Shown: positions 1 to 27,195, numbered from the stretch's first letter. The stretch: 63,165 bases of DNA from Psammoneis japonica (GCA_008632985.1 QPGO01000205.1:62001-125165); one strand, 5' to 3'. The notes: generated from the letters alone by a model not told the origin. Program-made: numbers and translations.

Positions 1-387
1 AAATGTGACATCTGTAAAAATCTACATGCAAGCAGACACGTGTGTTTCTCACTGGATTGTTCTTTCTCGGGAAAGGCGCGTCATGCCATTTCGCACACTT
101 GCACATCTGATCCGCACTGTAGCTTCTGCTGTACGCAGTCTAGTGAAGAGACTGGTGTGTTCCCTGCTGAATGTCACAGAGCGCTCAAGAAGCACGAAGC
201 GCAACAGAAGACAACACAAAACCGACCGCATCTTCTTTCACGACGACGCTATCGATATAAACCATGTTGTTTGCCAAAGAGGTTTTACCTTCCTTTGACT
301 CTTGGAAACGTGATTTTGCACGCTCAGAGCATGTGAGCAAGACAACGTCTTATCATGCTGCGGTGATTATTTCGCACGATGTCTTCC

Positions 388-621
388 AGTCACGACTCAA
401 CGTCATTCTGGTTGCATCTCACGACTGCAACCCAGACTCAGATTTTCTCTTCGAAATAATTGGCTCATCACAAAATCGATTCAAACAGAAGCAACGACAT
501 TCGTCATAATTTCTAGACAACGACTTTCAACAAGCGTCTGTTTACCTCTGTCGCTGTTCACATTGCTGCCAACCTCCGAGGTCTTGTCCATCCTACTCAG
601 CTGTGGGACTGTATCTCGACT
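388..621 (+). repeat. 5' LTR of Copia-1 (termini AGTC...GACT)
   Basis: Matches 7396-7629 with 8 transition mismatches; followed by PBS-like GGTTGTAGAGACC. Confidence 0.95.
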
Positions 622-783
622 GGTTGTAGAGACCAATTTACGCGTTGACGAGAGCTCCTGACCGAGTCATCGTCACGGACGCTTTCGGTTTTTGATTTTG
701 AAGCAAACCCGGGAAATGGCTGAGTCTCTCTTGCTTCTCTCATCTTCACTCTAACAAGAACCTCCCATGCTGCACTCTCCATC

Positions 784-3700
784 ATGGCTGCCATCGATCC
801 AGATGTTCTGGCGAAGGCGTTTGCCGATGCAATGGCCGCCAACGCCGCGGCGACCACTCCTCCGGCTCCAACCAAGCCGTTGCGTGGTGGAATTCACCCA
901 ACCCACGGGGTTTACATTGGTGGTTCCAAACTCAACAACAACTGCGAACAATCCAACGATAGAACCTGCCGATTCGCCTCTCAGCGCCGTCATCCCAAGG
1001 CTCTCGACTCGATAGAACGATCTCTCCGCGATCAACAAGCTTCCGCAATGACTTCCAAGTTCAACGGTCGACTTGAGATTTCGGACGGTCCCATCAACGA
1101 GCTTGACAAGGACCATTTCGTCAAGACTGTTCGAGATCTAGTAGAAGCCCACGGTCAGCAGACGTTCTACCATGTCAAGGACAGCGACGACAAGGTTCAA
1201 CATATCTTCGACCATCTTCACGAGTTCACTGTGACCGATCTCGTGAACGAGTACACGGTTGGGAAAACAGCTGCCGATGACACCAAGTACGACGAGATCG
1301 AGCTCGACGACATCGGGCTCTCTCAACTTCTCGTTCACTCAAGAATCACTAATGCCTTTCGCGAGAAAATCGAGACCAAGTTCAACCATCTTTCGGACTG
1401 CCAAGACTACCCTGGATCTGTTCTCTTCATGATGGCTCTCGACACTTGCAATGCTAGCGCTCTAACGGACATTGAGACGGCTAAGAAGCAGCTAGAAGAC
1501 CTTAGTTTGGTCAACTGTCCCGGCGAGGATTGCACGGACTTTGCTGCCGAAGCTCTTTGCATCGTGAAAATTGTGCAGACCGACTGCGCGCTTCCGGCAA
1601 ACACAAGCTCCAAGCTGCTCCACAAGATCTCCTCCACGTCCTCTGAATGCTTCAATCGCCGAGTCTACAACAAGCTCGACGACGTCAAGGCTATGGAACG
1701 CAAGTGCCGCCTCAAGAATCCTGCTGACATCGTGTCCGATAGCGATTGCAGAACGCTCGGACCAGTCGGCATCATTGCGTGGATTCAAGAGCAACACAAC
1801 GAACTCGTGAAGGATGGGGAATGGCCTGCATTAGTCGCCAAGCTACCCGAGAGCAATCTTTCGACTACGGATGACCCTGGGAAGACGAAGCACTGTTATG
1901 GTTGCGGTCTCGAGGGGTGCACCAAGAAGACGTGTCCGAAGTGCAACGCCAAACCGCCGCGCGACGATCCTCCTCCCAATCCGCCGCCTGCAGCCGACCC
2001 TTCCAAGAAGAAGAGGCGACCCATCGCTGCCTGGCGTGCTAAATTTGACGGAGAAACGAAGAAGGACAAGAATGGCAAGGAATGGAAGTGGTGTGCCACG
2101 TGCAAGGCGAAGGGTGCCGACAAACCTGGAATCTGCCAGCAGCACTCTACCGCGGAACATACCGACGACCGCAGGCAACCTCCCAAGGAGACCCCAGCAG
2201 GGAATTTGTCTTCCGTTGCTGATCCGGATGGTGGCGTGCCCATGGGTCTGCCCGCTCAGACTGCCAAGGAACCAGAGGGAGACGAATCCGACCCCAACGA
2301 GTTGGTTTTCACGGGAATGTGGTGCGCGGCTACGGATCCCGTTACCGACCCGGATTTCTGTTCCGCCCCTGTCACCACTGCAATTATTGTTACTCCGGCT
2401 TCTTTGGCCGAGAGGGAGAGCGACACAGTCATTAGCACTGAGGTGGTTTGCATCGAAACGAGCCCACCTGTACTCACCTCAGTCGTGGATCCAGTCGTGT
2501 CTCCCATCGTGGTTGAGACTGTCACTCCCGAAGACGCCGATGACTTCTACGAATGCTCCGACGCTTTCTCTACCTTTGAAAACGAACCACCGGCTATTGA
2601 GTTGTTTCCGGCCTCGAAGCTGTACTCCATCAAGCATCCAGATGAGTTCTTTGACGCTCCCGCACATTTGACGGATGTGCTGTCAGACGACACCAAGTTA
2701 GATCTCATCCTTGAACACGACGTACACTTTGAAGACGCATGCTGCGACTCACCTCCGTGTGTTGCGCATCGTGGCTTCGATTTCTACGATCCAGAGGTCC
2801 TGGATGCGGATGATTGTCACGAGGACGTCGAAGACAAGCCCACTTCGCGTCGCTCACTCTTGGGTCGAGTCAAGCTATTCACATTCTGGCTCGCCGCCAT
2901 GTTTTGGGAAACGGTGCTACATCTTTGCTTTGCTCCGATCCCATGTGTCCCTCGAGCTCTTCGCCGCCAGCGCAAACTCCCAACTTTGCACGGGTTTCCA
3001 GCCTCCTGGATGGTCCTGTCCGTTGCAGTGATGGCATGGTCAGCAGTTTACGCCGGTCAACAGCCCGAGCATCCATTCTCGAACGCACCAAGTCGTTTTT
3101 CGACCGCTGGCTCTCAAGTCTACCACATTGTGGAAGAGCTAGATGACCGGATAGTGTTAGATACGGGGTCACTGTTCGAATGTCACAGGATCAAAGGCAC
3201 GCAAGCACTCACCGAGTTTGTCGCGCGAAATCCGTCACACGCACTGAGCACTCGTCTCAAGGACTACTGGGAGAGCCTAGAAGTAGCTGAATGGTCTGAT
3301 GCGATAGACGAATCAGCCTTCTTTGACACCTGTGAGGAACTGGAACCTCTCGACGACCAGAAGCATTTCTTTGACGCTCTTGAGGACTTCAGCCCGGATT
3401 TCTTCCGGATTGACGAGCTCTGTCTGCCGCATCACATCGTGGACACTGCCCATTTTCAAGATCCTGTGGAACTGTTGGAGGAAGCAAGTGTTAGACCAGT
3501 CGTCTATAATGCCTCCACCATCCAACTGCTCACCGGACAATCACAAGCCGACCTCCTTGCATCCGATCCGCAGGCACTCATCGGTCTGTCGGACGAGGCT
3601 CTCACGGTCGTCATGGATGCTGGTGCCACGTTAGCCATTGCCCCCGATAAAGATGATTTTACGGGGCCTGTGACTGTTCCCAAGAAACCCTTGCAGATCA

Positions 3701-6700
3701 ATGGGATTGCCAACGGTCTTGCCATCCAGGGCACCGGTCCGGTTGCGTGGGTGTTCACAACGCCGAGTGGGGCTACCATCCAACTGAACACCATGGCATG
3801 CTGCGTCCCTGGAGCCCGTCAGCTCCTGCTGTCGCCTCAACGCCTCTTCAACGAAGAGAAGGGGGTACGTGGGAAGTGTGAGGGCGATGAAACCACTTTC
3901 CGTTTACATGTTGACGGGATGGGCAAGTTGGTTGTGTCATGTCATCCATCAAGCCACTCACCTGTTGCGTCGATGACCAAGGGCGCATCTGCCGCTCCTC
4001 AAGTGAACCTTCAGATCCTTAACGAGGAGAATCAAAACCTCACGGCAGGCCAAAAGCTTCTTCTCGAAATGCACGCCCGTTTTGGCCATTTGAACTTTGG
4101 TCGCATCCAAGCACTTCTCCGCGCAGTTCCGTTCCTTTCGAACCGTTTCAAGTCCGCAGCGAAGTGTGACCACCCAAGATGCGAGGCATGCGAACATGCT
4201 AAAGGTCATAGACGCTCTCTTGGATCTACTCACAAGTCGACAGTCCCTGAACACGACGGGGCCCTTCGAGCTGACCATCTTCGACCGGGTCAGGCTGTCA
4301 GCGTTGATCATTTTGAGTCGCGCCTTTTAGGCCGCACCTTCGACTCTTGTGGCACAGCCACGTCCAAGCAATTCAAGGGCGGTTGCATCTTTGTCGACCA
4401 CGCCTCTGGCTATGTCCAGGTCGAGCACCAACTGGGTTTCTCCGCTGTTGAGACGATCCGTGCGAAGCAAGCGTTTGAGAAACATGCTTTGGACCACGGG
4501 GTCATCGTCCAAGAATTTCTTACCGACAGTGGCGCTTTCAAGGCCAACGCTTTTGTACAACACACACGAGAACATGAACAACGTCTCCGTTTTTGTGGAA
4601 CCAATGCCCATCATCAGAACGGCGTCGCAGAGCGGGGCATCCGCAGCATCTCCAACATGGCGAGAGCGATGTTGCTTCATGCATCAATCCACTGGAAAGG
4701 GGGAATTGACAGCTCCCCATGGCCCATGGCAGTTTCTTGCGCCACGTGCATCTACAATGTCACCCCAAATTCCAAAGGACATTGCCCAGCGGACATTTTC
4801 GCCGGTTCGACAGTGCCAAGACATCGGTTGCGCGACATTCACACATGGGGATGTCCAGCGTACGTACTTGACCTGACCCTCGCTTCCGGGAAGAAGCTCC
4901 CGCGTTGGGAGCCTCGCACTCGTCGCGCTTTGTTCGTGGGACTCAGTGCCATCCATTCCAGTGAGGTTCCTTTGGTCCTCAATCTTCAAACTGGAAGTGT
5001 TGCACCTCAGTGTCATGTGGTCTTTGACGATCTCTTCACTGCCGTGCCATCAATCGAGAGGGAGACGGATCCACCTGATCACTGGGAACACTTGTGCCTC
5101 AACCAATCGATGTGCATCCCTCTGGAGAAGGATCAGGCAGTTCATTTACATGATGAGTGGCTTACCCCTCCAGAGCGTCAATGTAAAGAACGAGAACTAG
5201 CCAGAGCAACACGCATTCGCGGGCATTTTGAGCCTGCTCCATCGATTGCTGTGCCGGATTCACCCACTTCTCGCGACGACGTTGCCGATCGAGTCGCACC
5301 TGCGACTCAGCAGCCAACGCCACCAGTCCCACCTGCGACTCAAACTCCTGCAGACTCTACGGACTCTACGCCAATTCAGCCACCTGAACCTCAAGATGGT
5401 AACGGACTTCCGCCACCCGAAGCGCCGACGGAACCAACAGCTCCTCCCCCAGTCGAGACACCTCCTGTGACGAATCCAGAGGGAGCACCAGGGCTGCGAC
5501 GGTCTTCACGGTCAACCAAGGGACAGTTCAACTCTACCAAGTTTGTAGATGAGGTCTGCTTCAGCTCCGTCGAGGAAATGCCGCTGCCGATCGGACACGA
5601 GGCTCAACCAGCATATCTGGCGACTCTCGAGACGGATTTGGACAGTGGTGCCATCAATGTCGGCAATCCACGAGCCTGCGCAGCTAGCAAGAAAACCAAG
5701 GACCCTGACATGCCTTTGTTGCACAATGCTCTGAAAGGTCCGGACTCCGACGAATGGATCAAGGCAATGAAAATTGAAGTCAACGCACTCACACATCGTC
5801 GAGCCTGGAAAGCAGTCGAGCGTCAGCCGCACATGAATGTACTTCCAGGCACATGGGCACTAAAGCTCAAGAGACTCCCAGATGGAACCCCTCTCAAGTA
5901 CAAGGCCCGATGCTGCGTCCACGGTGATTTGCAGAAAGAAGGAGTCGACTGCTTCGAAACCTGCGCGCCGGTTGTGCAATGGTCCAGTGTCCGACTCATG
6001 CTCACTGCGGCATTAAAGGAGGGATGGACTGCACGACAGGCGGACTGTGCCACAGCCTTTTGCCAAGCTGACATCGCCGAGGAAGTTTGTGTAACACCGC
6101 CGAAGGGATTTGCGCCAAGGTCGGGACTCAATGTGGTTCTCAAACTTTTGAAAGGACCACACGGCCTAAAACAGTCTCCCAAGGGCTTCTACGAGAAGTT
6201 ACGAGCTGGTTTAACCAAGCGCGGATGGGCACCTTCAGCCATAGATCCCTGTTTGTATTTCAAAGAGGGCATGATGTGTGTGGTGCACGTCGACGACACC
6301 GTTTTTGCTGGAGCTTCAGCTGAAGCTCTAGAAGCCGAAATTCGCAAGTTAGGAGTCTCCGACGACGAACATCGCCACGCATTTGAACTTAGAGACGAAG
6401 GAGAAGTCGGCAACTTTCTCGGTGTCAAGATCGAAAAGCTCTCCGAGGGTCGATTTCTACTCACTCAACCCGGTCTAATTGACAAGGTCCTACGCACCGC
6501 ACAGATGCAGGATTGCAATGGAGCATCTACTCCAGCTCTACCTACGGCTGTTGGTGCCGACACGGACGGCCCACCTTTTGATGAACCCTGCGATTGTCGC
6601 TCAGTTGTTGGAATGTTGATGCACTTGGCAGCGAACAGCCGGCCAGACATTGCATGTGCCACACATCAAGCAGCTCGATTCTCATTTGCACCCCGAGCGT

Positions 6701-7467
6701 CCCACGCTGCTGCAGTGAAGCGGATGCTCCGATGCCTCAAAGCAACTGCTGCTGAAGGTCTCATTCTCAAGCCTGCGCAAGATCATCGAGTTGATTGTTA
6801 CGTCGATTCTGACTTCGCGGGGTTATTTGGTGTGGAAGATGGTCAAGACCCAGTTTCTGTCAAGTCCAGGACTGGACACCTCATCTGCTGCGCCGGCTGC
6901 CCGCTTGTCTGGGTGTCCAAGCTACAGACTCTTGCAGCATTGTCGACTATGGAAGCGGAATATGTTGCACTTTCTCAAGCTGTGCGCGATCTCATCCCTG
7001 TTCGTGAAGTTCTCAAGGAGCTCAACCACCACGCATTCGGAAAGTCTGACCGCCAAAACCCAATCACGACTCACTCCAAGGCTTTTGAGCTCGCAACCCA
7101 AGGCACCGATGACTCGCCTGTAGAGCAGAATGTCCCGCCTGCGTCCGTTGTGTACGAAGATAACTCCGCGTGCCTCAAGTTCGCACGCATGCCCAAGTTG
7201 TCTCCGCGAACCAAACGCATCGGCATCCCGCACCACTGGTTTAGGACTAAAGTCGAACAATTGGAGATCGACATCCAACCTGTCAGCACTCTAGAGCAAC
7301 TAGCCGATCAGTTCACGAAGGGACTACGGACCGATGCGTTCCGCACGGCTAGAAAGGCTCTTGTGGGCTGGCAAGCTCTCTCGGTTGAGAGGGAGAGTCA
7401 CGACTCAACGTCATTCTGGTCGCATCTCACGACTGCAACCCAGACTCAGATTTTCTCTTCGAAATAA
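784..7467 (+). CDS. Gag-Pol polyprotein: open ORF but probably inactivated by missense changes
   Basis: Zn-knuckle CYGC..C..C; protease MDAGA; HARFGH..C..C; integrase core; RT KARCCVHGD/KGPHGLKQ/VVHVDD; RNase H YVDSDFAG/STMEAEY/QLADQFTK. Probable original stop at 7372-7374 now reads CAA. Confidence 0.93.
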   Translation: MAAIDPDVLAKAFADAMAANAAATTPPAPTKPLRGGIHPTHGVYIGGSKLNNNCEQSNDRTCRFASQRRHPKALDSIERSLRDQQASAMTSKFNGRLEISDGPINELDKDHFVKTVRDLVEAHGQQTFYHVKDSDDKVQHIFDHLHEFTVTDLVNEYTVGKTAADDTKYDEIELDDIGLSQLLVHSRITNAFREKIETKFNHLSDCQDYPGSVLFMMALDTCNASALTDIETAKKQLEDLSLVNCPGEDCTDFAAEALCIVKIVQTDCALPANTSSKLLHKISSTSSECFNRRVYNKLDDVKAMERKCRLKNPADIVSDSDCRTLGPVGIIAWIQEQHNELVKDGEWPALVAKLPESNLSTTDDPGKTKHCYGCGLEGCTKKTCPKCNAKPPRDDPPPNPPPAADPSKKKRRPIAAWRAKFDGETKKDKNGKEWKWCATCKAKGADKPGICQQHSTAEHTDDRRQPPKETPAGNLSSVADPDGGVPMGLPAQTAKEPEGDESDPNELVFTGMWCAATDPVTDPDFCSAPVTTAIIVTPASLAERESDTVISTEVVCIETSPPVLTSVVDPVVSPIVVETVTPEDADDFYECSDAFSTFENEPPAIELFPASKLYSIKHPDEFFDAPAHLTDVLSDDTKLDLILEHDVHFEDACCDSPPCVAHRGFDFYDPEVLDADDCHEDVEDKPTSRRSLLGRVKLFTFWLAAMFWETVLHLCFAPIPCVPRALRRQRKLPTLHGFPASWMVLSVAVMAWSAVYAGQQPEHPFSNAPSRFSTAGSQVYHIVEELDDRIVLDTGSLFECHRIKGTQALTEFVARNPSHALSTRLKDYWESLEVAEWSDAIDESAFFDTCEELEPLDDQKHFFDALEDFSPDFFRIDELCLPHHIVDTAHFQDPVELLEEASVRPVVYNASTIQLLTGQSQADLLASDPQALIGLSDEALTVVMDAGATLAIAPDKDDFTGPVTVPKKPLQINGIANGLAIQGTGPVAWVFTTPSGATIQLNTMACCVPGARQLLLSPQRLFNEEKGVRGKCEGDETTFRLHVDGMGKLVVSCHPSSHSPVASMTKGASAAPQVNLQILNEENQNLTAGQKLLLEMHARFGHLNFGRIQALLRAVPFLSNRFKSAAKCDHPRCEACEHAKGHRRSLGSTHKSTVPEHDGALRADHLRPGQAVSVDHFESRLLGRTFDSCGTATSKQFKGGCIFVDHASGYVQVEHQLGFSAVETIRAKQAFEKHALDHGVIVQEFLTDSGAFKANAFVQHTREHEQRLRFCGTNAHHQNGVAERGIRSISNMARAMLLHASIHWKGGIDSSPWPMAVSCATCIYNVTPNSKGHCPADIFAGSTVPRHRLRDIHTWGCPAYVLDLTLASGKKLPRWEPRTRRALFVGLSAIHSSEVPLVLNLQTGSVAPQCHVVFDDLFTAVPSIERETDPPDHWEHLCLNQSMCIPLEKDQAVHLHDEWLTPPERQCKERELARATRIRGHFEPAPSIAVPDSPTSRDDVADRVAPATQQPTPPVPPATQTPADSTDSTPIQPPEPQDGNGLPPPEAPTEPTAPPPVETPPVTNPEGAPGLRRSSRSTKGQFNSTKFVDEVCFSSVEEMPLPIGHEAQPAYLATLETDLDSGAINVGNPRACAASKKTKDPDMPLLHNALKGPDSDEWIKAMKIEVNALTHRRAWKAVERQPHMNVLPGTWALKLKRLPDGTPLKYKARCCVHGDLQKEGVDCFETCAPVVQWSSVRLMLTAALKEGWTARQADCATAFCQADIAEEVCVTPPKGFAPRSGLNVVLKLLKGPHGLKQSPKGFYEKLRAGLTKRGWAPSAIDPCLYFKEGMMCVVHVDDTVFAGASAEALEAEIRKLGVSDDEHRHAFELRDEGEVGNFLGVKIEKLSEGRFLLTQPGLIDKVLRTAQMQDCNGASTPALPTAVGADTDGPPFDEPCDCRSVVGMLMHLAANSRPDIACATHQAARFSFAPRASHAAAVKRMLRCLKATAAEGLILKPAQDHRVDCYVDSDFAGLFGVEDGQDPVSVKSRTGHLICCAGCPLVWVSKLQTLAALSTMEAEYVALSQAVRDLIPVREVLKELNHHAFGKSDRQNPITTHSKAFELATQGTDDSPVEQNVPPASVVYEDNSACLKFARMPKLSPRTKRIGIPHHWFRTKVEQLEIDIQPVSTLEQLADQFTKGLRTDAFRTARKALVGWQALSVERESHDSTSFWSHLTTATQTQIFSSK
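7387..7395 (+). other. Polypurine tract of Copia-1
   Basis: GAGAGGGAG abutting the 3' LTR. Confidence 0.8.
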
Positions 7468-7629
7468 TTAGCTCATCACAAAATCGATTCAAACAGAAGC
7501 AACGACATTCGTCATAATTTCTAGACAACGACTTTCAACAAGCGTCTGTTTACCTCTGTCGCCACTCACATTGCTGCCAACCTCCGAGGTCTTATCCATC
7601 CTACTCAGCTGTAGGACTGCATCTCGACT
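7396..7629 (+). repeat. 3' LTR of Copia-1
   Basis: Direct repeat of 388-621. Confidence 0.95.
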
Positions 7630-8077
7630 CTTCCCAGACGACGATCCGCATGTTGAGAAGATTCGCTCCTTGGCAGAAAAAGATCGAAAGTTCTGTCAAT
7701 GTCTACAGGACGATGAGCATCTCCGCACCAAGTTCACCAACTGCCATGAAGATAGTCACGAGTCGCCGACAGAACGCGCTCTTCGAAATTTCATCTACGA
7801 ATCCATGACGGAACGAGTTGATCTCGCATTGACGCAGAAGGCACTTCTTGGCAAGTACTTTCAGTTGCTCAGTGAGAATGACAAGGTCTCACTCCATGGT
7901 CTAGTGGACAATGAACTTGGTTACATGCCTCAGCATTTGCGACGTGACATGAAGAACTACGAAAAGGTCAGTCGCATGGCAATGGGTAACATAGTTTCTT
8001 GGAACTACTTCACCATGGACGAACACGAGGCGAAACACCCAACCCACCCAACGACGCCTTACATGTTTGATGATTGA
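7630..8077 (+). pseudogene. 3' part of a hypothetical gene interrupted by Copia-1 (5' part about 264-387); paralog of 23799-24362
   Basis: Joining the flanks restores ...HDVFPDDDPHVEKIRS...PYMFDD, collinear with the uninterrupted copy. Confidence 0.6.
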
Positions 8078-8962: not shown

Positions 8963-11900
8963 CTCTTCCCCTCAATGGTGCAAGAATCACGCACACCATT
9001 GGAACAACTTGGCTCAAATTTAAACTCCAAATGCGCATGGAGAAGGGAACCCAGGCGTTGGGAAGAAACCCTCAACTCCGATGCGGCACCATCGCGACGA
9101 ATGTTGATCCGCTCAATGACGTGTGGTGCTCGCAGTGCCGAAACTGTCCCGCTGGCGTGGACTTGCACAATTCGAAACGGACCATGAGCCCAAGCTTCTA
9201 GCTTTGCTGGATCCAGGGACTTGATCAACACATCTTGTCCCACTGCACAATCACAAGAATGGTGCTTTGCGTTCTGTCGGCGCAGGTTCTCGTTGACAAG
9301 CACTTGACGGTTGGCTTGGACAGCAGCAAGATCGGAAAGAACAGGTGGGTCCACAATCATGTCTCGTTGGAATGCCAAGGCTCCACTTGACACACCCGTG
9401 GACCTTGAATGAGAGCATCACAATGCAAAGGAGGCTGCAGCAAGGGCATCATCCACCATCTGCTCGGCCTGACACGTCCCAGCTCTAGGTGGGACCTCGC
9501 ACTGCTGCACTGTGACATCAACAGTTTTTTGGATCGCGTCGCATGTCGCGCGCGCACATTTTTACATGTCACATTCTACGAAATTGTTTCATGCTCCCTG
9601 TTTTGCGAAGCCAAAGGCTTTCCATTCTCAACATTCATGAGAATGAAAATGCGCCGGGTGTGTTCTTTAATGTCTGAAGAACACACCCGGGCAAACTGTC
9701 AATGATGCACACCAAGCATGAAGGAGGAGATGCATTCGCAGAATTGCCTCTTTTTCTGTTGGCAATCATTCACTTTTTCATTGCAGTGCAAATTTGCTGC
9801 AGAGCTCGCACGCAGAATTCCACGGGCCCAATGTCACACGGAGTCCCACCTGGGACTGGAACCCGTCGCCTGTTGAATGTTCAAAGGTGGGTTGGCAGCA
9901 ACCACAGTTCGTAAAACATTGGCTGCCGTTTGGTGCATTTGTTCACAAATCGAGCTAGCTGCAGGATTCCATGAGGTCGTTGGAGCATCCTTGACACCAG
10001 CCTGATTCAACAACATTTGAAATTCCCAACCAATGAATTCACCGCCGTTGTCATGGATGCATCGATTCGGTCTGGGACAACGAGCTGACCAAAGGTTGCG
10101 GAACTTGTCAGCAACGTGTTGAGAAGTTTTGTTGTCAATGCGTGTGAGTTCAGTCAGGCCAGCAACAGTGTCAATGCAAGTCAGGGCGCTGAACTCAATT
10201 TCTTGATCTTGAGTTGGCATTTTCCATGGTCCAATGAGGTCAACTGCTGCTTCCGACCACAGAGCTGATGGTGCTTGGCGTTCAGGCAATTCTCCATGTC
10301 CTGGACCAAGTTGTTTGAAACGTTGACAGGTGTTGCATGCGAACTCATTACAATGCCGACGCAGTGCAGGGTGACACATGTGAGTGTGAATGCTCTCGTA
10401 CAAACAAACAACTCCACAATGGCCCAACACACGATGACACCACGTGAGTGTGTCAGGCAACGATGCAGTCGGAATGCAAATTTTCCACACTCCAGGTGGA
10501 TCATTCAAATGCAGACGACAACACATGAGAGGACGCTGGTTCACAATCTTGACCACGAATTGCTGCGGGTTCTGTTGTCTCTGTTGATTCAGTTGCTGGT
10601 CCTCAAACTGGAGCTGTTGTGTCCGCAACATTTCAGCAGGGTTCAGCATCTCGTCCAATGTCGGACAATTCAAAAAGCATTCAAACAATTCAGGTTCATC
10701 AAGTGGAGAAGAAAAGGCATGAGATTCATCAGAAGGATTGACAGGAGCACTGCAACACTTGAACCTGCAAGCGCCCAACTCCAAATCTTCTTCTTCCTTG
10801 ACCTTGCTCAATTCACTGCTGTCCAACTTTTCAAAATGAATGATTTTTCCTTTGCGTTTGCTGCTTGGCCCAAGGCTCTTCCCCTCTGAAGGTGGATCCA
10901 CACGTGAGAGTCAAGAAAAACAATCGGCGAGCACGTTGTCCTTGCCTTCGACACATTTAAAGGCAGGCGCAAAATCTTTGAGGAGTGGACACCAACGAAG
11001 GACGCGCTGTGTGTTTAAAGTGCAAAAGGTGAGATTCTTAAGGTCAGCATGAACAGCAACATCAGCACCAAGCAACATTGTGCGAAATTCTTTAAAGCAC
11101 ATGACAACGGCCAGGAGTTCTTTTTCCATCATTCAGCACGCCACAGGTTTGCCATCTTGGACAATGGCTGCACCCATCTGACAGTCTGATGCATCGGTGT
11201 GCACATGGAATGGCAGGTTGTGGTTGGGACAGGCCATGAGAGCTTCTGCTGCAATCACTGCTTTCATTTCCTCAAATGCTTTCTGACATGCACCTGACCA
11301 ATGGAACTGGCTTTTGCCTGTCAATTCCGTTAAAGGTGCAAGCAAGTGAGAACGATGAGGCCACACATTGCGACAACAGGTCACTGCACCTGAAAAGGAG
11401 CAAAGTTGCGTGGCAGTTCATGGAGGTTGCATTAGTGGAATCGCTTCGACCTTTTTCTTCCACGGTTTGATGCCAGTTGGAGTGAGCCAATGTCCCAGGA
11501 AATCCGTCTCTTGGACACACCACTCGCATTTCAATGGGTTTGCTTTCAATCCACTCTCTTCCAGACAATCCAGCACTTTGTCAAGACGAGAGAGATGGCA
11601 ATCAAAGTCAGTGTCGAAGGCGCCAATGTTGTCAACATGAGTTTCAACGTCCAAACCATGCAAAATCTTTTCAATGATGGATTGAGCGATGTCTGGAGCT
11701 GGCTTCAATCCCATGGCCATGCAACAGCATTGGAGCTTTCCGCACGGGGTTGCAACAGTCGCTGGCTCCTTGCTTTCGTTGTCCAATTCCAAGTTGCAGC
11801 AGAACACAGTGAGATCAAGTTTGGTGAAGAACTTGTGTCCCGCTCTCCACTGCAGTGCATCTTGGATGACTGGCAAAGGACAGACTTTTTGCTTGAGCAC

Positions 11901-12800
11901 TTCATTCAGTTCACGGAAATCAGATGCCCGCCGCACTCGACCGTCTTTCTTCGGAGCAATGAAAGTGCCAGCTGCCCATTCTGCAGGTCCACATGGTCGT
12001 AAAACTCCTGGGTCCACTGAATGTTTCAGTTCCTTTTTAAACGCTTCCTCATTGACACGAGCAACAGGAAAAGGTTTTGAGTGATGGGGCATGGCATTTT
12101 CTTCCACCTCCAGGTGTGCCTTTTCATGAGGACAGTGACCCAAGGTGCCGTCAAACAAAGTTGAGCATTTTTCCAACACTGCCAACAGCTTCTTCTTTTG
12201 CTCTTCCATCAGGTGATCTAGGTTGCAAACCACTTCCACAGGATCCATTGCTTCACACTCAGCATCCAACACATGGCTGTCACATCCATTGTCACATCCG
12301 CAGTTCAATTCGTCCTCGCAGTCTTCATCGAATTCATCCATGCGGTCCAGTGCAACATGCCAGTTGCAGGACTTGGGCCAATGACGAGGCTCCTTCATCG
12401 GAATGATGCGGTCCAATCAACGCAGCCTTCTTGTGTCACAATTCAAATGGAGTCCAATTTTGTCTAGGAAGTCTTGACCCAAAACAATGTCGTGCGCACA
12501 CGGAGCATCAAACACATGAGCCACACAACCGTCAACTCTTCTGGTCTTGTTGAATTCGGGTGGTGCAATGTCAATTAGAGCCACCCAATGACCCGACTGA
12601 AAAGGACCTGCAACGGTTTGAAAAGCTCGCACTCCTTGCTCATCAATGGATGGTGCAGCTCCACGAGGCAAAACTTGAGAAGAGATCATGGTGTGAGAGC
12701 CACCAGAATCAAACAGCACACGCATCACACAATTCGACTCATGACGCTGGATCGATTTGGCAACCAATGGAGTTGATGGGACGATGAACAATTTCAGCAA
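8963..12800 (-). pseudogene. Gypsy pol fragments (protease, RT, RNase H, integrase)
   Basis: LFDSGGS; PKKDGRVR..DFRELN and THVDN; HTDASD and [21 protein letters not shown] and HGPF motifs; broken by stops, frameshifts and a MITE. Confidence 0.9.
9471..9867. mobile_element. 397-bp MITE inserted in the Gypsy integrase
   Basis: Imperfect TIRs starting GAC and containing AGGTGGGAC; 4-bp TSD GCCT; removal restores IQQAEQ. Confidence 0.88.
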
Positions 12801-13989
12801 TCAAAGAATCAACAATCCACACAATGAATGAAACAATGAGTTCCCAATTGATCAACACAATGAGGACAATCAACAACCAAACAACAACAAATTCAAGCGT
12901 GGCGACACGAGCTTCGAGTTCAAACAAACGCTGCTCCAAATTGCCAATTTCACGAGCACAATTGCGCTGAGGTTCCGATTGATTTTTAATGAAATTTTCT
13001 GCACGAGCACATGAATGAGCTTTCTCTCTTTTTGACAGTGCTCTGCACGTTGTCATGAAATGGATGGTGCAATGAGCAAGCTGTGACAACAACTGCAATT
13101 GCAGTGCAAGATCCAGCTTGAGATGACTTGATAAAACAGGTTGTGAGAGAACCGAGAAGAGACTTCATCAGCGCAATCGCTGATCGAAACTGACTTCTAA
13201 CGGCTTCTTGAATGTCCAATGCGTTGGGTCATAAAGCACATGTGCCCATCTCATTCATGGTTGTCAATTCGGAATGACACACAAATGACTAAATGAGCAA
13301 TTAAAAATTCTGGTGTGCAACGTGGAATGCTGCTGGGGTTGGTACGAAAAGTGGTGAGCTTGTGCCGTGATCATCACAGAAAATCTGTGCCACAGATTTG
13401 GGGTTCAGATTTCTTGCAGATTTTCAAGGGGTCCGCAGAAACAGTTGCAGATTTTCAAAAAGCACAGATTTTCAATCATTCAGCTAAAAATGGGGTTGGG
13501 TTTTGCCTGAATTTGCCAAATTTGTGCAAACTTTGAAGAACCTTTCTGCAGGCCCAGCGCGGCAAAAGCAAGCCCGGTGCGTTCTACGTGCATCCTGCGC
13601 ACATTTGCACCACTGAGGGGGGAAGACAGACGGGGTCAGATTCCAGATTTTCCGGTCACGCGACACCGGTTAACAGGAACAGCCACTGCTGATTTGGGGG
13701 GGCGCGCTTTCCCCTGGCGTCACGGGTTAACTGCGCTAACCGGGGGGAGTCCTCAGTGGTTCCTGCCCGTGTGACAGGAGGCCGGTGCCGGAACCACCCC
13801 CGGAGCCAGTTCCCGGACCCCGGACAGGCCTGTGGTTGGTGAAGACAAGAACCTTCAGAACCAAACAAGACACAAAATCCACTTGTCAAAATGTTCATTC
13901 TCCCCACTCAAATGTCAACATAGTTCGAAACGACTCCACTTGTCAACCACCCCAAGTGAGCGTTTGATTTCAAAAACCTCTTTTCTTTT

Positions 13990-15209
13990 GATGGCAAGGT
14001 GGGTGCACCCCAAAAGACAATCCCTCGAGGCTGTCATGATGAGAAGAAGAGACCCAAGATGGCGTCTCAGGTCTCCACAGGAGACTTGTTGGCCCAAACC
14101 ATCACACCACTCAAGGTGGATGGCACTTGTGTGTCACTGAGTGGAATGCATGCAAAAGGTGGGTGGATGAATCGCCGGCTCTGTCGGGGCCACCTTGCTT
14201 GATGCAACACCAGGTCGACCGGTGCTTCTTGGAGGCAGTGTCAAAATGAGACGTCACGCCAAAGTTGGCCAAGCGTGTCATTTGGTCACTGCAGCATTGT
14301 TCATCTTGGGAGGAGCACAAACCTCCTGGTCCAAAATTCGTTGTGAGATCCAAGGCAGTTGACATCGCTCTGGTGGCGCACAAGGAGCGATGCACCCAAA
14401 ATTTGCTCACTGCGTTTGTGTCAGCTCATGACAAGCTGCCTGCGGACACTCCATCTGATGTTGCTGAGGACAAGACATTGAGTTGTGTCATTCAATCTGC
14501 TGCTTGGAAGAACTTTGTGGTGTCATGGACCAGCTGCAGCCAGACCATGACACGAGGTGATCAGCTCCGACTCATGCGACATGCGGACACACACTGTGAC
14601 GAAACTCACAGCCCCGGCAACCCAAACGAATTGGTCGCACGTCCAATGACAGCTCTGATTGAGCAACGGTTCACAGGCAAATGAGGCTCCCACAAAAAAG
14701 GAGTTGCAGGCATGTGGCGACACCGTGACTGGAAGCGATGCGGAGCCGGCATGAATGCCACCGTCGCCGCATGCAGGTTTCACAGCGACACCAAAACCCA
14801 CTTCATCCATCAACATGATGGATTCCCAGACTGGTGCAAGCATGAACTTGTGGATTGGAAAACATTGGACACTCACCGCAAGGCACACCAATGGGTGTGC
14901 AGGGCAACTAAGACTTCGTGGGTGAAGTGCACTCACCTTCGCACCGCTGGCATTGACTCCAGCAACATGGGCGGGGCGACCAAGCAAAACATTGAGCAGC
15001 AGACCAAACATGGAAAAGATTCACTTGATGTCTCATGCTTGCCTGAGATCCCTCCACAAGTGCAGTTGATTGCCGCCGGGTTCTCTGAGCTGCATGGCAA
15101 TGAAGTTCGCTGCATCCCTCATGCCAACATGTCCTTCGGCAAGCTGGTTCCCGGAAAACCAAACATTGCTGATGCTGAGTTGGCATCTAAGATTTTTTGT
15201 GGCCCCTAA
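13990..15209 (+). pseudogene. Crypton-like tyrosine recombinase (Ndc10 domain II-like) relic
   Basis: Motifs TRGDQLR, MWRHRDWKRC, KCTHLRTAG, SC(Y)LPEIP..AAGF across ORFs 14265-14684 and 14712-15209. Confidence 0.7.
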
Positions 15210-16539
15210 AATGATCTTACAGATTTTCAAATCAACACAGATTTTCTGTGACAATCAGGGCATGTGCCGGCAAGATTCTTCTAAAATGCTGTGTCACGCC
15301 AGCCAGTGTTTGCAAACCATGCCTTAACTCCGCTGCACTTGTCCAAACCTGAATCTGGTCTGTGCACACCACAGCTTTTCCCTTTGTCTTCTAAACGTGC
15401 CACCCTTGGGTGCTCCCTCTTGTGCACTTCTCCTCCACCTTTGCAGCAAAAAACGGCCATGTCATTGGAAGAAAATGACACTCAGGTCTGACATGGTGCA
15501 ATCAATCAAGAGGAACACCGAGGCCTTTGGATGCTGTCTCAAGACCAAGCGTTGCAACCTTCAATGCCTCATCTGGCTGTTCTCCACCTGCAGGGATGTC
15601 ACCCACAAAGGTTTGCGCACACAGCTGGCCCACAATGTCAGACAGCAGATTCCGCTGAGACGTCTCTTCCACATCCCTGTGTGTTTTCTTTGACACTGTT
15701 GTCACAGCTGGTGAAACTCCAGGGAGTGAAGCAAGGGCTGTGAGGTTGTCTTCAACAGTGTCTGGGTGAGGTTCTCACACAATCGACATGTTCCTCTCAA
15801 GGCCTTGTTTGGTGAGCTTCTCTTTTTCCAGCTTGATGAGTGCCGCTTTGACGACCTCCTCCTCCGCACCCCAAGTTGCACCGGGACACCTGTTTGTTGC
15901 TTTGTCCATCTTCTGTTTCAGCTCTTGTGGATCTCTTCCACAGCAAGGGCGCCCCTTGTCAAGACCCCATTCCCTGGGCACCATGTCAAATGTGAAAGAG
16001 TGTGAGGTGTTGAGATTTAGAATGATGAAAACATCACAAAATCAAGCAATGATCAACACAACGTGTGCAGGAGTTGCTCTCATCCCATCACTGTGCTTTT
16101 TGACTGTCTCATTCAATGGGGACTTCTCAATGGGCATGTGGCCCTTCTTGATCATTTGGGCTTTCAAAGCTCCCAAATTCCAGTGTCCAGATTTCTTTGC
16201 TTGAACAATGGCTTTTGGCACCTCAGAAGGTGTGCATTGAAATCCATTGAGGGGGCGTGGTGCCTTGATCCCCCCATCCTGTCCAAAAACAGTCCTGGCA
16301 GCACCAGCTGTCAATTCTTCATTTTCGTCACTGTTGTGCTTTGCTCCTGCCATCACCAAGTTGGAGCCGAAGTTTTGCATCTCACAAAACATGGGATTCT
16401 TTTTCTGCAACGTTTGATCATTTCTCTCCTCCTCGCGCATCTTTCTCTTCCTCTCTTTTTCAAGCTTGCCACTGGCAATGTTCCCACACTTGAACAATGC
16501 AATGTTTGCTGCTGCTCATGTCAGTGAGGTTGAACCTTC

Positions 16540-16605
16540 TTTGAGTTTCTGTGAAAGAACAACAAAATCTTTGAGTTTCTGTGAAAGAACAACAAAATCT
16601 TTGAG
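16540..16605. repeat. 30-bp tandem duplication in an unidentified minus-strand coding relic (about 15500-16815)
   Basis: TTGAGTTTCTGTGAAAGAACAACAAAATCT twice. Confidence 0.8.
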
Positions 16606-17604
16606 CATTTTTGACAGCTTCTCCTTGGCTCCCTTTGAAGACCCCAACTCCATAGATTCCAACACATTTGCGTGCATTTCAAGAAGCATTCTGGCATTTT
16701 TCACAAGCACTCCAACCTCAAAAATCTTTGATGCCTTTGCCGCATCATTGCATCCACCACGGGAAAGAGATGCTCCTGCACTTGACATGGTTGTGATGGC
16801 ACCAATCTGAAACACAAAGTGAGGGAAAATGTTGGTTTTTTCTTTTTCATTTTGTTTGAATTTAAAAAGTGCGACTCATTCAAATTCAAAACAGCAATGG
16901 TTGACAAGACTTGCACTGTCATGTTCAAGTCATCAGCAAGACTTGCTGCCATTCATTGTGTTGCGCTGGTGCTGCAATGCACAAAATGGCAAAATGCTTC
17001 TAAGCACGTCCATTGCTCTGCACTGATTCAACATGATGCATTGATGGGAGGTTGTGCAATTGTTTGAGGCATCATTTGGTTTCAGCAGCGACCGGCACTC
17101 ACATCATCATCAGCATCAACAAGTTGCGTTGAATTGTTGCATTGGATGTCGTTGCACCCAAGAACATTTTTTGTTGTTTGCTGTTCAGCTAAATACAGAA
17201 AAGGCCTGATTGTCAAACAAAACAGTTGAGTGGGAAATGGCTTGCCAAGACACCAAAATTGGAGTGCAGGATGCGTGGCCGACTGGCTTTTTTCTGATGA
17301 CCAGCTTTTTTCCCACCTGTGGCATGCAGCACTTGCAGCATTGCTTTGTCAACAGAAAAGAATGACAGATTCAGACAGTGGATGAACACATTGAAAAAAA
17401 TTGTTCAGTCAAGTTGTTCCAGCTTGATGGTCGCCCCTGCACAGAAGTTCCACACAGTGGATGGAAAGGCATTTTTTGCCTGTGCCATCCGGGCAATCTG
17501 CTGAAACGTGCGACATCACGCAATTTCAATGGAAATGAGCAAACCCCAGCTGTGAGCATTGTTGATGCTTGTGACTTAAAAAAGGCATTTCATTCTTGTG
17601 TTTT

Positions 17605-17705
17605 CTGAAACCTGCTGAATGTTTCAGCAGATTCTGCTGAAACCTGTCATGTTTCAGCAAATGCTGAAACATGCCATGTTTCAGCAAATTTTGCTGAAAC
17701 ATGCA
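17605..17705. repeat. Array of short palindromes TGTTTCAGCA..TGCTGAAACA
   Basis: Several alternating-orientation units; related array at 18500-18655. Confidence 0.8.
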
Positions 17706-18499
17706 ACAGGCCAAATTGTGTGTCAACGCGTGACTTGGTTTCTGAACAAAAAAATGCCACCCATGAGCACGCAGCGTGTTGAAACACAAACTTGCCATTG
17801 CGGTCGGTGCCTTTGAATGAGCTTTGGCAAGGCTCAAAGCAAATGAATTGCTGCAAAAGTAAAACATTTGAGTGGTCCATGTTTCAATTAGTCTGCTGCG
17901 TCAATGTTGTGCGGTGATGATGCACTTCAATCACCGCGCGGTTGACATTGTCTTGGCACGAGATGGAGAATTGCTGCAGCAAAGTGTTTTTCCTCGTTTT
18001 TGGGGTCTTTTGCACCTTGTTCCGCCAGAATCTTTTGTTTGAATGCTGCATCATTTTGTGCCATTTGACATGGGCTGCTTCTGCAGCTGTGGAGGTGAGT
18101 CAGGTGTCGAAAAACACAGTGCACGTCTGTCAAGACTTTTCAGAAAAATGGCAGCCATCAACCGCTTTGCCTGCAGGGTTCCACCTGACCCCAGCACAAG
18201 ATGTGCACACCAAACACCAATCACAATGATGAAAAACTTTGTTGCTCATGTCATCTTGCAGCGACCATTTTAGATGCAAGAAAAAGGCAAGAATGCACCA
18301 ACACACCAATTTGGGAGATGATTGTCGTGCTTGTTGAGAGCACCGTGCAGCCGTCAACATTGCAATGGCAGCTTTCAACGTTTGTCATTTGTTGCATGAT
18401 GATGGACGTTGTTTGTGTGTTGCACATTTGTTGGTTGTTTCACAGACGAGCCTGGGCAAAACACCACCACAATTGCAGCAAAATTGCTCAAACAGGATT

Positions 18500-18655
18500 C
18501 ATGTTTCAGCAGATTTTGCTGAAACATGTTTCAGCAAAATGCGTGTTTCAGCAAGTTCTGCTGAAACATGTCATGTGTCAGCATTTGCTGAAACATGCTG
18601 CATGTTTCAGCAAAATTTGTTGAAACATGAGTCCCATTTGCATGTTTCAGCAAAT
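18500..18655. repeat. Second TGTTTCAGCA..TGCTGAAACA palindrome array
   Basis: Same unit as 17605-17705. Confidence 0.8.
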
Positions 18656-21600
18656 GGCAGCATTTTGATCAAGCACGAGTCAAAACTTGAATGACATTTG
18701 ACGGCAATCAACAGCTTCAAAGAATCTTTTGAGATTGCTGTGCATGCTTTTCGTGCATTTTCAGTGAAATGCCCAGAAGGTGCTGGTGTGGGTGTGGGCA
18801 GCAGGTTTTGATTGACTCAACTCAAGCAAAGCAAGAGTTGTCATCTCACAAAAGCAACCAAGATGTTAAAGTGGGGAGAGCTGACAACTGCACAAGTGCA
18901 ACCATCATCAAAGGCAGCTGCACTCAAGGACAAGGAACAACATGTGAAGCAAAATGCAACATGCAGATGAGGCTGCAAGAAAAGGCAGAGCAACATGAAG
19001 AAGCAAGAAGAGAGAAGCCACCAGAGGAAAAAACAGGTGAAAGGGGCAAACAAAATGACAAAAAAGAGAAATTGTGAGACTCTTTTGGGAGCCAAAAGCA
19101 AGCAGTTGTGAGATGCCTTGCAGCACAACCCAACAAAAGCTTGTTGCCACCCCAGCAAGCCAGCCAAGAAGCTCTGTGTGTTGTCCATGACCAAGTGGCA
19201 CCCTGAAAAGTGTTTTCAACACTGCTTTGGGGTGCGACCAAGTTGTCATTGAGAGCTGCCTCACAAAAAACTGCTCCAGTGCTTGTCAGTGAATCTCCAA
19301 GCATGTGCAAAAGCACCGGAGCTTGCTGAAGATGTCTTTCTCTGCTGCTGTGTGCTGCTCAGGCAACCGTCTTTGCAGCTTTGGTGTTTGGTGCAGAGCT
19401 CCCAGCACAGTGCTTTGCTGAGGCACCAACAAGGTCATGGGACAACTTTGACAATTGACCGACCGCAACAAAAATGGGCAATGCTCCATGGCACGTTTTC
19501 ATCCCACCCATGATGGCCATTGTCTGTCAATCACGACACCATTCAATGCACTGACAATGTGTCGATTGAACGGGATCTGTGGCACAAAATGCAAGATGAA
19601 ATGTGATTGCTCATGTGCAGAATGCTGCAGGGGTCACCAATCCAGTGTTTGTCATTTGTCAGTGTCACAAAATTGTCAACTTTCTCCCAACAATCATGGA
19701 TTGCAACCATCAACTGCACGTGGCTTTGCAGCAATCAAAAGATCGCAATGCATGCGCACTTGCCACGTGCGACAATTGACTGCAATTGCAATTGCAATTG
19801 GCCACCGCACGGAATTTGCGTGCCCCACACAGGGGCAACCTCCATGCAAGAACACATTTTTTGTGAATGAACACCACGTTTTGGTCAATTTTTAGTCCCG
19901 TTTTCACTGTAAATCCCAATTCATGACCAAATTTTTGATGAAAATTGATCGCAATTGATTGCGAACACGATTGCGATCTTTGTGACCAGTGCCAGACAAA
20001 CAATCAGCATGTTGCAATTGCTTTGATTGCAGCTTGCAATCAAATTGCAAACAGGATTGCAGCCAAGTGAGCAATTTTGCAATGCTGTCATTTGTTGTCC
20101 CACATGATTGCCCATGCATTGGACATTGTTGGCGAAGACTGGCAATGCATTTTCTGCAACTTTTGTTCAGTGACAGTGCTGCACTTGCTCTAAAATGTCA
20201 AAGTGACATTGTTTGGATTTGTCAGCAATGCAGTGCTTGTGGAGACAATGTGAAAACAATGAACACTGGACAATGTGCACACTGCGCAATTTCAATTAGA
20301 TCAGCAATGCCTGTGTGGCGCAATTTAGCCATCAGTTGTCAGTTTTTCTTTTGCCTTTCAGCCACAAATGCAAGCCACAAGGCGCACAGCAAAGGCCAAG
20401 ACAAAAGCAGAACCACACACAGCCCATGACAATGATGTGGCAGATTGAACAGTCACCCTCATTCTTCCAATTTGCACATCTTTTGTGCAGAATGAAGGGG
20501 GTCATTTAGATCACTCTTTTGTTGTGCATTCAGAAAGGCAAGCCATGAGGCACCCAGTGTGAAGGACAAGGCAAAAGTGGAGCCGTGCATGGTTGACAAA
20601 ATGTGGCAGATTGATTGGCAATGTTCATTCTTCCCTTTGACCTGTCTTGTGCACAGAATGCAGTGTGTCATTTTTTCCTTCTTGTGTTGTGTGGTCACAA
20701 ATGCAAACCACAACGGCTCTGAAGCAAAGGCCAAGGCAAAAATGGAGCCATTCGTGCATGAACAATGTCAACATGCATGATTTAATGGCAAAGTTTGTTC
20801 TTCCCTGACTCCACCATGAGAGGCCGCTTTGTGTCAATTTGTTGATGCACCCGTCATGGTCATCGGCAGCAGAGACCTGGGTGATGTGAGCAAAAGCACG
20901 CACACCCAGGTGGAGTGCAATGGGAATTGCCGCACCGCACTCATTTTTTGTTCCTTCCCCTGACATCTTTCAGTCATTCCTTCCCACCAAATTGCCCTCA
21001 TTTCCCGGGTGTTCCCCAAAAGGGCAAGGTGATCCCCCCTTGCCCTTGCCATTTTGGGGGATCCCCAAATGGGTGAAACCAAACTAAGACAGCAGGAAGG
21101 AAGTGGGTGAGACAAGCTTGAGGCACTGCTGGGTGAGACAAGCTTGCTCTCTTGCACTGCTGCAAAAGAAGAAACAACAACAGAGAGACAGGAAACAAGC
21201 AAAACCGCTGACAACAGCAATTTTTTTTTGCTTGGAATGCCGTCACATTTTCTGTGTTCACTGTCCCAGTCACTTGCATTGAAATGGCGACATTTGTGCC
21301 ACAAGATTTGTCTTCTCCATGCAAACTGCCACATGACGGCAGTTTGGGGCTGTGTTTGACTAAAGCACACCCCCCAAGCAAGCAAAAATTCACCTTTGTG
21401 TGTGGCACAACCTTGTTGCATCCTCTGCCTTGTGTGCAGCACAAAATTTGCACCACACATGAGGCACCATTGCTCAAAGGATGACCTTCCACATCAGTGC
21501 TGTCATTGTGTGCGGCATCCCACACTGTTTGATGACCTGCTGATGGAAAGACAATCAACGACTCTGGATGCCACATGACACCACACTTCTGTTGTTAAAT

Positions 21601-21864
21601 TTTTTCTGCCAGTTTGTCATTGAGGCTGCAGAAGAGAAGCTAAAAGGGTTCAACCCTCTGCTGGATTGGCTGCATTCACGGTGCCAAATTGTGATCCTGC
21701 ATGTGGTGGCTCAACTTTTGTCACCTTGGCTTTCTCCATGCTGTCCTCCCATGCTGGTTGAAGGAAGCTGCCCCCATCATTCTGGAAGAGATCCAGCTGA
21801 CAGATCCTTGTTTGCACAGGAACTCTCTTGCAACTGTGCTGGTGCCGCACAGAGTGTGTCAACT

Positions 21865-22260
21865 GATGCGTTCCAGGCCCAGGTGGGAGCTTGCAGTGCT
21901 GACAAGTGACACAACTGTTTTTTGTCATCCGTCGCATGTTTCGCATGTGCATTTCTATGTGTGACATTCCAAAAAATTGTTCCAGACTTGTTGTTTTGCA
22001 AAACCCCAGATGTTTCATTTGGCAAAATTGTGGAGACACAAATGCGCCAGGTGCATTTTTGAATGTCTGAAGAGTGCCCCTGGTTGAGCAGAAAATGATG
22101 CACTTCAATCATGGACAAGTTTGTGCATTTGCAAAGTTGCCTCATTTTCTGTTGGCAATCATTGACACATCAGTTGCCTGGCAATTTTAATGCGGAGCTC
22201 GCACGCAGAATTCTTCGGGCCCAATGTTGCACGGATTCCCACCTGCATCTTGAACGCATC
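21865..22260. mobile_element. 396-bp diverged member of the MITE family
   Basis: Termini GATGCGTTC...GAACGCATC; internal similarity to 9471-9867; flanks AACT/ACCT. Confidence 0.7.
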
Positions 22261-22667
22261 ACCTTGGCTTTCTCTTTGCTCCCGCACTGCTGGTTGAGCC
22301 AAGCTCCCCCCACTGTTCTGGATGAGATCAAGCTAGCGGATCTTTTTTTGCAAATGCTCTCTTGCACCTGTGCTGATTCTGTGTGCACAATGCAAGATGG
22401 ACGAAGCTCCAGATGTGTTGTGTGTGTGTGCATCTTTTCTCTTTCAGCCAGATTGGCATCATGATCAAACAGACCACACAACATGCTGCACTGCAGTTGT
22501 TTTTTGATCATCGTGAATGGGTGCGTGGGCAAAAACAACAAGTCGATCTGGTCAAGTTTTGTGCGAACACCTCGACCCTCTGTCTTGCGATGACCAAAAA
22601 CCTGTTTTTGTCTGCTGCAGGCACATGTGCTGCCACTGTGAACCTTTCCAATCCATCAGTTTGCATG

Positions 22668-27034: not shown

Positions 27035-27195
27035 GACATCGTGGCCGAGCGGTCTAAGGCGCAACGTTAAGGGTCAGTCCGTCGTCCGTTTGCATTGTTA
27101 ATATCCGCTTGTGCCTTGCTCACATTAATGTTCTGTCTATCATTCATTCACAGCCGTTGTCTTCATTGGCGCAGGTTCGAATCCTGCCGATGTCA
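27035..27195 (+). tRNA. tRNA-Leu(AAG) with an 81-nt intron (27073-27153) at position 37/38
   Basis: Acceptor GACATCG/CGATGTC; D-arm GCCGAGCGGTCTAAGGC; anticodon stem CAACG/CGTTG; long variable region; T-arm GCAGG-TTCGAAT-CCTGC; discriminator A; T6 run downstream. Confidence 0.93.

Follow-up and report, generated by a model that had tools for sequence, protein, structure and literature searches.

LTR mismatches and structure of the element

What process accounts for the differences between the two long terminal repeats (LTRs) of a Ty1/copia retrotransposon at 388-7629 (+ strand, 7.2 kb) of the window (the whole 63,165-nucleotide stretch of Psammoneis japonica DNA analysed), and did it act before or after insertion? 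The 5' LTR (388..621, + strand, 234 bp) and the 3' LTR (7396..7629, + strand) align without gaps and differ at exactly 8 positions, all of them transitions, as an earlier note on this DNA had described. Six mismatches had been referred there to TpA sites, four unambiguous and two fitting an ancestral TA; in keeping with this, six of the eight mismatched bases were found to fall on five TpA sites, each occurring as TA, TG or CA and never as CG, while 28 of the 234 LTR columns are of TpA type (hypergeometric P = 4e-5; TpA-type columns were defined from 41 copies, the window's own pair included). The genome search yielded at least 41 LTR matches, with 40 of 95 candidates scored, and the 41 LTRs include one insertion present on two contigs and two copies sharing a 3' flank.

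Among the 39 other LTR copies the five sites were read as TA 22, TG 15 and CA 2 (461-462), TG 17, TA 12 and CA 10 (555-556), TG 21, CA 10 and TA 8 (585-586), CA 22, TG 9 and TA 8 (604-605), and CA 23, TA 12 and TG 4 (612-613), with no CG at any of them. At position 413 these copies carry TCG (35), TTG (3) or TCA (1), and this mismatch is CpG decay. At 557 TT was found in 34 and CT in 5, four of the five CT copies also carrying CA at 555-556, and the mismatch is a same-strand neighbour change that involves no TpA base. Derived states are carried by both LTRs, as had been claimed: at 413 (CpG), 462, 556, 586 and 605 in the 5' copy, and at 7563 (TA>CA), 7565 (neighbour change) and 7620 (TA>CA) in the 3' copy.

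The element is flanked by a 5-bp target site duplication (TSD; CTTCC at 383..387 and 7630..7634, + strand), which is present as a single copy at an empty paralogous site near 23917. A putative PBS-like tract on the inner side of the 5' LTR (621..635, + strand; role assigned from position) shows TA/TG/CA variation at two dinucleotide steps across copies, and a polypurine tract (7387..7395, + strand) precedes the 3' LTR. A single, stop-free gag-pol frame of 2247 amino acids with the Copia domain order (724..7467, + strand) has 60% of its TpA-type sites altered and many Tyr>Cys/His substitutions; it contains an integrase region (4069..5031, + strand; gag_pre-integrs at amino acids 1116-1160 and SH3_retrovirus at 1369-1436, both below the Pfam cut-off) and a reverse transcriptase (RVT_2, 5803..6540, + strand, E 4e-34) whose catalytic motif reads HVDD, with the His codon at 6286. 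At 7369-7467 the frame extends beyond GW, the end of the aligned relatives' match, into the 3' LTR, and the next codon begins with a CA step.

Assignment to Ty1/copia was based on the direct LTRs, the TSD, the polypurine tract and the position of the integrase 5' of RVT_2 (the integrase-flanking domains being below cut-off). The LTRs of the family lack TG...CA termini, having AGTC...GACT (388-391 and 7626-7629) with 5-bp TSDs; AG...CT termini are not disqualifying because TG...CA is not universal among the CoDi Ty1/copia elements of diatoms, three families of which also lack it (PMC2806351). The Copia order, the 7.2 kb length and the 234-bp LTRs agree with the ranges reported for CoDi elements (PMC2806351). 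'Copia-1' was the earlier note's own label and is no established family name. The one named close protein relative, among 120 proteins listed, is from Fragilaria crotonensis (60% identity). No tRNA gene was found in the window. The diatom identity of the host shows in 24 silicon-transporter matches in the genome (best E 2e-208).

The Copia element is nested inside another repeat, an uninterrupted paralog of which (23792..24689, + strand) matches 257-387 and 7630-8400; at 20 sites it still reads TA opposite a TG or CA in the right flank of the element, the reverse being seen at 1. The surrounding repeat domain (9001..63165, no strand assigned) contains older retroelements with RVT_1, rve and RVT_2 remnants, at a TpA O/E mostly of 0.00-0.2; for the whole window TpA O/E is 0.14 and TpG/CpA is 1.59. 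Two older LTR pairs (30369-37575 and 50372-57113, with LTR starts at 30369/37373 and 50372/56993) have almost no TA left, and their mismatches, largely TG vs CA, represent the saturated end state. Also TpA-depleted are a degenerate GC-rich tandem array (25039-26521) and clusters of short inverted and direct repeats (17602-18640).

Direction of change at TpA sites

Fifteen full elements (the window's copy and 14 further elements from the genome) were compared at 328 TpA-type sites, at which TG was read 1943 times, CA 1567, TA 1371 and CG 5; transversions numbered about 20 against 3510 transitions (about 0.6% of events). The column states were TA, TG and CA without CG in 143 columns, TG and CA in 117, TA and one other state in 45, and CA only or TG only in 824. 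TA was taken to be ancestral because it is the only state besides CG that sits one step from both TG and CA. As an outgroup test, 21 columns in which tyrosine is conserved among relatives were examined; 4 read Phe or Trp in all copies, and the remaining 17 read Tyr 52, Cys 109 and His 94 times (of 255). Conserved cysteines of the relatives (11 columns) were replaced by tyrosine in 0/165 cases and conserved histidines (21 columns) in 0/315. As read from these alignments the direction is TA>TG/CA, and the ancestral status of TA that had been proposed is upheld by the three-state sites lacking CG and by the outgroup tyrosines.

That the changes ran the opposite way (TG/CA>TA, as in fungal RIP), or that they represent CpG decay (CG>TG/CA), would agree with the majority of TG or CA at four of the five LTR sites and with the CpG decay that does occur, for example at 413, but is refuted by the 143 columns with TA, TG and CA and no CG, by the excess of CA-only or TG-only columns (824) over columns with TA and one other state (45), and by the conversion of conserved Tyr to Cys or His and never the reverse; the chance that either is correct is considered negligible. 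The refutation that the earlier note had itself proposed, namely that a consensus of TG or CA would make TA the derived state, is an unsafe test, because conversion has progressed to the point where four of the five sites have TG or CA as their commonest state; a majority consensus would wrongly show the ancestral TA as derived. The right test of polarity is a single site with TA, TG and CA but no CG, together with the outgroup tyrosines.

Timing relative to insertion

Mismatched TSDs were observed in 4 of 14 scorable elements (L035 was excluded, as its 3' end does not match), with 5 altered bases in total, every one at a TpA step, and the terminal LTR base was altered in two elements in which the junction had created a TpA. 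Since TSDs arise at integration, these changes must have followed insertion, and the post-insertion timing claimed for the LTR mismatches is confirmed by them. Outcomes shared among the 15 copies are at the level expected from site frequencies (maximum concordance 0.70, null 0.70), and inheritance of TG/CA outcomes among these copies was rejected on that basis. The one insertion found on two contigs differs at 3 of 1880 bases; 77 of its 79 TpA-type sites agree and 2 differ, one as TG vs CA, which indicates that the process continued after those copies split.

It is very improbable that the changes reflect editing of RNA or cDNA before integration, error of the reverse transcriptase or an assembly artefact. 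The element does pass through RNA, and CA at the reverse transcriptase motif (6286-6287) was found in 30 of 30 family copies examined, giving HVDD where 104 of the 120 relatives listed have YVDD, which suggests that one change or more preceded the burst. HVDD was consequently rejected as proof of post-insertion change, and this CA looks to have been inherited from the source of the burst, judging from its presence in every copy. Against editing of RNA or cDNA, however, outcomes occur on both strands (TG 1943, CA 1567), TSDs and host flanks are altered as well, and sharing of outcomes among copies does not exceed the level set by site frequencies. As regards an artefact, contigs of run X1 contain the same TG/CA double variants and the two-contig insertion agrees at nearly all TpA-type sites, although no library type is recorded for X1, which may itself be the sample that the window comes from.

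Rate of change and LTR dating

The proportion of altered TpA-type sites ranges from 60 to 80% per copy, the window's copy being at 60%. In 13 copies, 3018 of 4239 TpA sites (71%) were altered, compared to 139 of 33728 for transitions at other adenines (0.41%), and 318 of 13132 CpG bases were altered; with correction for saturation, the excess at TpA per adenine is about 150-fold over other adenines. Elements L036 and L043 were left out of this estimate and treated as a sub-lineage of the family, having 25 private markers in common and 2-4 times more CpG decay.

The 15 LTR pairs contain 163 mismatches, of which 140 lie in TpA columns, 14 at CpG and 9 elsewhere; these last include 2 junction TpAs and 6 neighbours of TpA sites. 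Divergence within pairs is 0.046 per base overall vs 0.0033 for the mismatches elsewhere, and raw LTR divergence is at least 14-fold inflated. The prediction that LTR dating would overestimate ages in this genome therefore stands in its direction, with 140 of 163 mismatches at TpA, but no constant factor applies: the inflation depends on the DNA flanking each LTR, so that LTR divergence fails even as a relative clock. The raw distance of the window's pair (0.035) is silent on its age because none of its mismatches is clearly neutral. Work on such genomes meets bias in LTR dating, in repeat-age landscapes, in majority consensus libraries and in homology annotation; frames remain open while tyrosines disappear. 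CoDi LTR pairs have been reported to be 94-100% identical and were read as recent, with no mention of TpA hypermutation in the portions of that report compared (PMC2806351).

Targeting of repeats and sparing of genes

TpA O/E was bimodal over 200 sampled kilobases (20 stretches at round coordinates on 6 large contigs), with 74 below 0.1, 94 below 0.2 and 77 at 0.4-0.7. In TpA-normal DNA, 18 of 30 scanned long frames (30 of 43 frames) matched host families and 0 a transposon family, while in TpA-poor DNA 1 of 18 long frames matched RVT_2 and 17 matched nothing; in this frame scan the depletion is confined to invading DNA and genes are spared.

The amount of TpA retained in each LTR tracks the TpA level of its outer flank (Spearman 0.73, all 30 ends). 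Within the outer 120 bp, gene-like flanks (10 ends) go with 3 of 64 altered sites and depleted flanks (mutated repeats; 13 ends) with 83 of 99, with no overlap between the ends of the two classes (P = 5e-5), while interiors were altered to 76% in both; the limits of the flank classes were fixed after the first correlation had been seen. Six ends with intermediate flanks (25 of 42 altered) and the 5' end of L041 were omitted from this two-class comparison. Next to gene-like DNA the outer 100-400 bp are spared and the ramp is complete by 400-600 bp. The effect was present at 5' and 3' ends taken separately, and was weaker in a paired test within elements (rho 0.52, P = 0.045), in which 10 of 15 had the same sign. 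The ramp may correspond to a chromatin-domain boundary. The omitted L041 end (C51:395769-396306) has two tandem LTRs 303 bp apart, with a short PBS-to-PPT stretch between them.

RIP depends on pairing and a sexual cycle, and a trigger of that style, in which the same chemistry would be set off by homologous pairing (e.g. during sexual reproduction) and weak pairing would spare the edges, was also considered. It would explain why repeats are hit and genes spared, and the DNMT4 enzymes that diatoms possess are relatives of RID (PMC9998398). Against it, sparing of edges is limited to ends with gene-like flanks; where the neighbour is an unrelated old repeat, the changes reach in full across the outermost 120 bp, the TSD and the junction. 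In addition, the main target region in Bigelowiella natans is single-copy and acquires mutations in clonal lines (bioRxiv 10.64898/2026.01.13.699255, in the portions compared). We regard this trigger as unlikely, and targeting of a silenced domain is preferred.

CpG decay amounts to 3-12% per copy, a level that fits methylation if judged from the sequence changes, and showed no clear edge effect. Across copies the correlation of TpA loss with CpG loss is weak (rho 0.42, P = 0.12; residual 0.13, P = 0.09), and tight coupling of the two was rejected.

Sequence context and candidate mechanism

A>G changes affected 2442 of 5211 TAY sites vs 820 of 3983 TAR sites. Neighbouring adenines were converted together with the TpA adenine on the same strand: at -2, A>G was found in 33 of 934 cases on the same strand, 6 of 967 on the opposite strand, 1 of 258 beside unchanged sites and 6 of 2143 in the control (beside invariant TG), and at +1 the corresponding counts were 22 of 337, 4 of 567, 0 of 607 and 12 of 3593. 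The same-strand conversions are spread over 19 (-2) and 20 (+1) columns. At distances from 0 up to 1000 bp the same-strand share was 0.50-0.51 (null 0.51), and no strand runs were detected. Neighbour co-conversion without runs fits an enzyme that strikes many times independently, each time on a few opened bases. The overall pattern, i.e. the TA>TG/CA direction, post-insertion timing, excess at TpA, transitions, TAY preference, neighbour co-conversion, lack of runs and sparing of genes and edges, is held with very high confidence.

Error-prone repair synthesis over repeats by a Pol eta-like polymerase, with G inserted opposite T, could produce tandem same-strand changes, and WA motifs are where Pol eta makes A:T mutations during somatic hypermutation (PMC6423074). 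The most altered contexts outside TpA are AAT and AAC (0.7-1.4%), which points the same way. WA includes AA, yet AA>AG reaches 0.2-1.4% as against 60-80% of TpA sites; transversions are too rare, and patch synthesis predicts strand runs over tens of bases, which are absent. This explanation is regarded as quite unlikely.

Base marks typically have a symmetric dinucleotide as their target and sharply bounded domains, the decay of 5mCpG being the model, and an A or T at TpA in silenced repeats could be methylated or oxidised and then miscode or be repaired to G:C. The genome contains many C5-methyltransferase-like loci (27 matches), and the strict TpA specificity exceeds that reported for ABE7.10 (PMC8065034); a site-specific mark, on the other hand, poorly explains the conversion of same-strand adenines at -2 and +1. 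Neither Tet_JBP nor MT-A70 was matched in searches whose controls were equally silent, and this result carries no weight. A modified-base route is accordingly given a low, though appreciable, probability.

The reading that we favour, and consider somewhat probable, is a chromatin-bounded, adenine-deaminating genome defence. A young Copia family would have spread in the diatom genome and each copy would then have been hypermutated in chromosomal DNA by a host process turning A:T into G:C at TpA on either strand (TA>TG or TA>CA). What would be targeted is not the paired sequence but the silenced domain, heterochromatic and CpG-methylated. Chemically, a TadA/ADAT-like or ADAR-like enzyme would deaminate adenine to hypoxanthine within a small patch of opened DNA, replication would fix the lesion as G, and the hits would be many and independent. 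Tyrosine codons and other TpA-bearing signals would be destroyed and the element so disabled. Whether the lesion arises at the A or at the T paired with it is not visible in sequence, and this weighs against a firm reading as deamination.

Adenine base editors show bystander conversion. TadA/ADAT2 and these editors resemble the process seen here in A>G change, preference for a 5' T and the TAC motif, which is the stated preferred motif of TadA and ABE7.10 (PMC8065034). They differ in that the natural substrates of TadA/ADAT2 are tRNAs and in that specificity here is far stricter, at more than 100-fold vs about 3-fold for TA over GA with ABE7.10, for which the 3' base mattered little in a meta-analysis (PMC8065034).

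Loci for an ADAT2-like (C26), a TadA-like (C38) and two A_deamin (C40, C79) proteins were identified in the genome; they are housekeeping-type genes expected for tRNA editing, and neither they nor the C5-methyltransferase-like loci could be linked to the process, in a search that scored few candidates, exon by exon. No chromatin domain was found in the deaminase genes in the frames scanned. One frame (L054:313-1785, minus strand, C79) fuses a zinc deaminase domain and a 2OG-Fe(II) dioxygenase. Several C5-methyltransferase-like copies (L116-L118; C301, C297), of which some contain stops, lie in TpA-depleted DNA (O/E 0.07-0.10). O/E at five further loci of this kind is 0.36-0.56, and a weak chromodomain match lies upstream of a C5-methyltransferase match at L119:2348-3508 (minus strand, C34).

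Comparison with known systems and wider reach

RIP of ascomycetes likewise confines itself to repeats, hypermutates specific dinucleotides by transitions, disables transposons and throws off LTR dating. It acts on the opposite base pair and in the opposite direction (C:G>T:A, making TpA), and C:G>T:A change at CpA/TpG is not what was found here; edges here follow the flanking DNA, and no strand runs were found.

TpA hypermutation has been described in integrated NCLDV and virophage DNA of B. natans (10.64898/2026.01.13.699255). Two integrated viral regions acquire TpA>TpG/CpA changes de novo there, about 6e-7 of them per site per generation, which is a rate raised about 1000-fold, the process being active in some lines only; an adenine deaminase was proposed, not shown, and there are hints at transposons (10.64898/2026.01.13.699255). 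Both systems have A:T>G:C transitions restricted to TpA on both strands, with almost no other changes, limited to foreign or silent DNA, and TpA-poor, TpG/CpA-rich blocks, some with transposon domains (10.64898/2026.01.13.699255). The host here is a diatom (a stramenopile) and the target a multicopy LTR retrotransposon family, in contrast to integrated viruses in a member of the Rhizaria, and 94 of the 200 sampled kilobases have a TpA O/E below 0.2, compared to a 5% cut-off of 0.43 in B. natans (10.64898/2026.01.13.699255). De novo rates were measured in that study, whereas states were read from sequence here; the edge effect, neighbour conversion and TAY preference are described here and are absent from the portions of that study compared, and the words diatom, LTR and trinucleotide occur 0 times in its main text (10.64898/2026.01.13.699255).

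What is new here is a second host lineage and target class for a recently described process, with added anatomy. The TpA process of one 2026 preprint now covers two supergroups of eukaryotes and takes in retrotransposons on the scale of a genome, and the TAY motif, the same-strand patch of 2-3 bases and the 100-400 bp ramp at gene borders should be useful in the hunt for the enzyme. More tentatively, and with rather less than even confidence, diatoms may possess, as chlorarachniophytes may, a natural DNA adenine editor steered by silent chromatin, an A:T counterpart of RIP that would have rewritten about two-fifths of the genome, may still be active and may span distant algal lineages. A natural chromosomal A>G editor, if true, would be of direct interest to base-editing research.

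No report of TpA hypermutation in diatoms was found in open-licence PMC and bioRxiv, most subscription papers lying outside these sources, and no window resembling this one was found in the other genomes scanned. Among public protein relatives, 0 of 120 listed had at least 20% Cys/His at the Tyr columns, in a set biased to intact or collapsed assemblies. In metagenomes, the best 80 of 556 relatives had a median TpA O/E of 0.66, the search patterns containing Tyr and so favouring intact copies, and 2 were below 0.3. These two single contigs, L178 (1776 bp) and L206 (1693 bp), chosen after the fact, are Copia reverse transcriptase fragments with TpA O/E of 0.18 and 0.21, in which TAY is rarer than TAR and Tyr>Cys/His changes occur. 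They possibly record the same process in another organism, to judge from their base changes: L206 matches the P. japonica genome at 66% only and is foreign to it, and relative to their nearest relatives the ratio of TA>TG/CA to the reverse was 17:2 for L178 and 29:2 for L206, while three control pairs were even.
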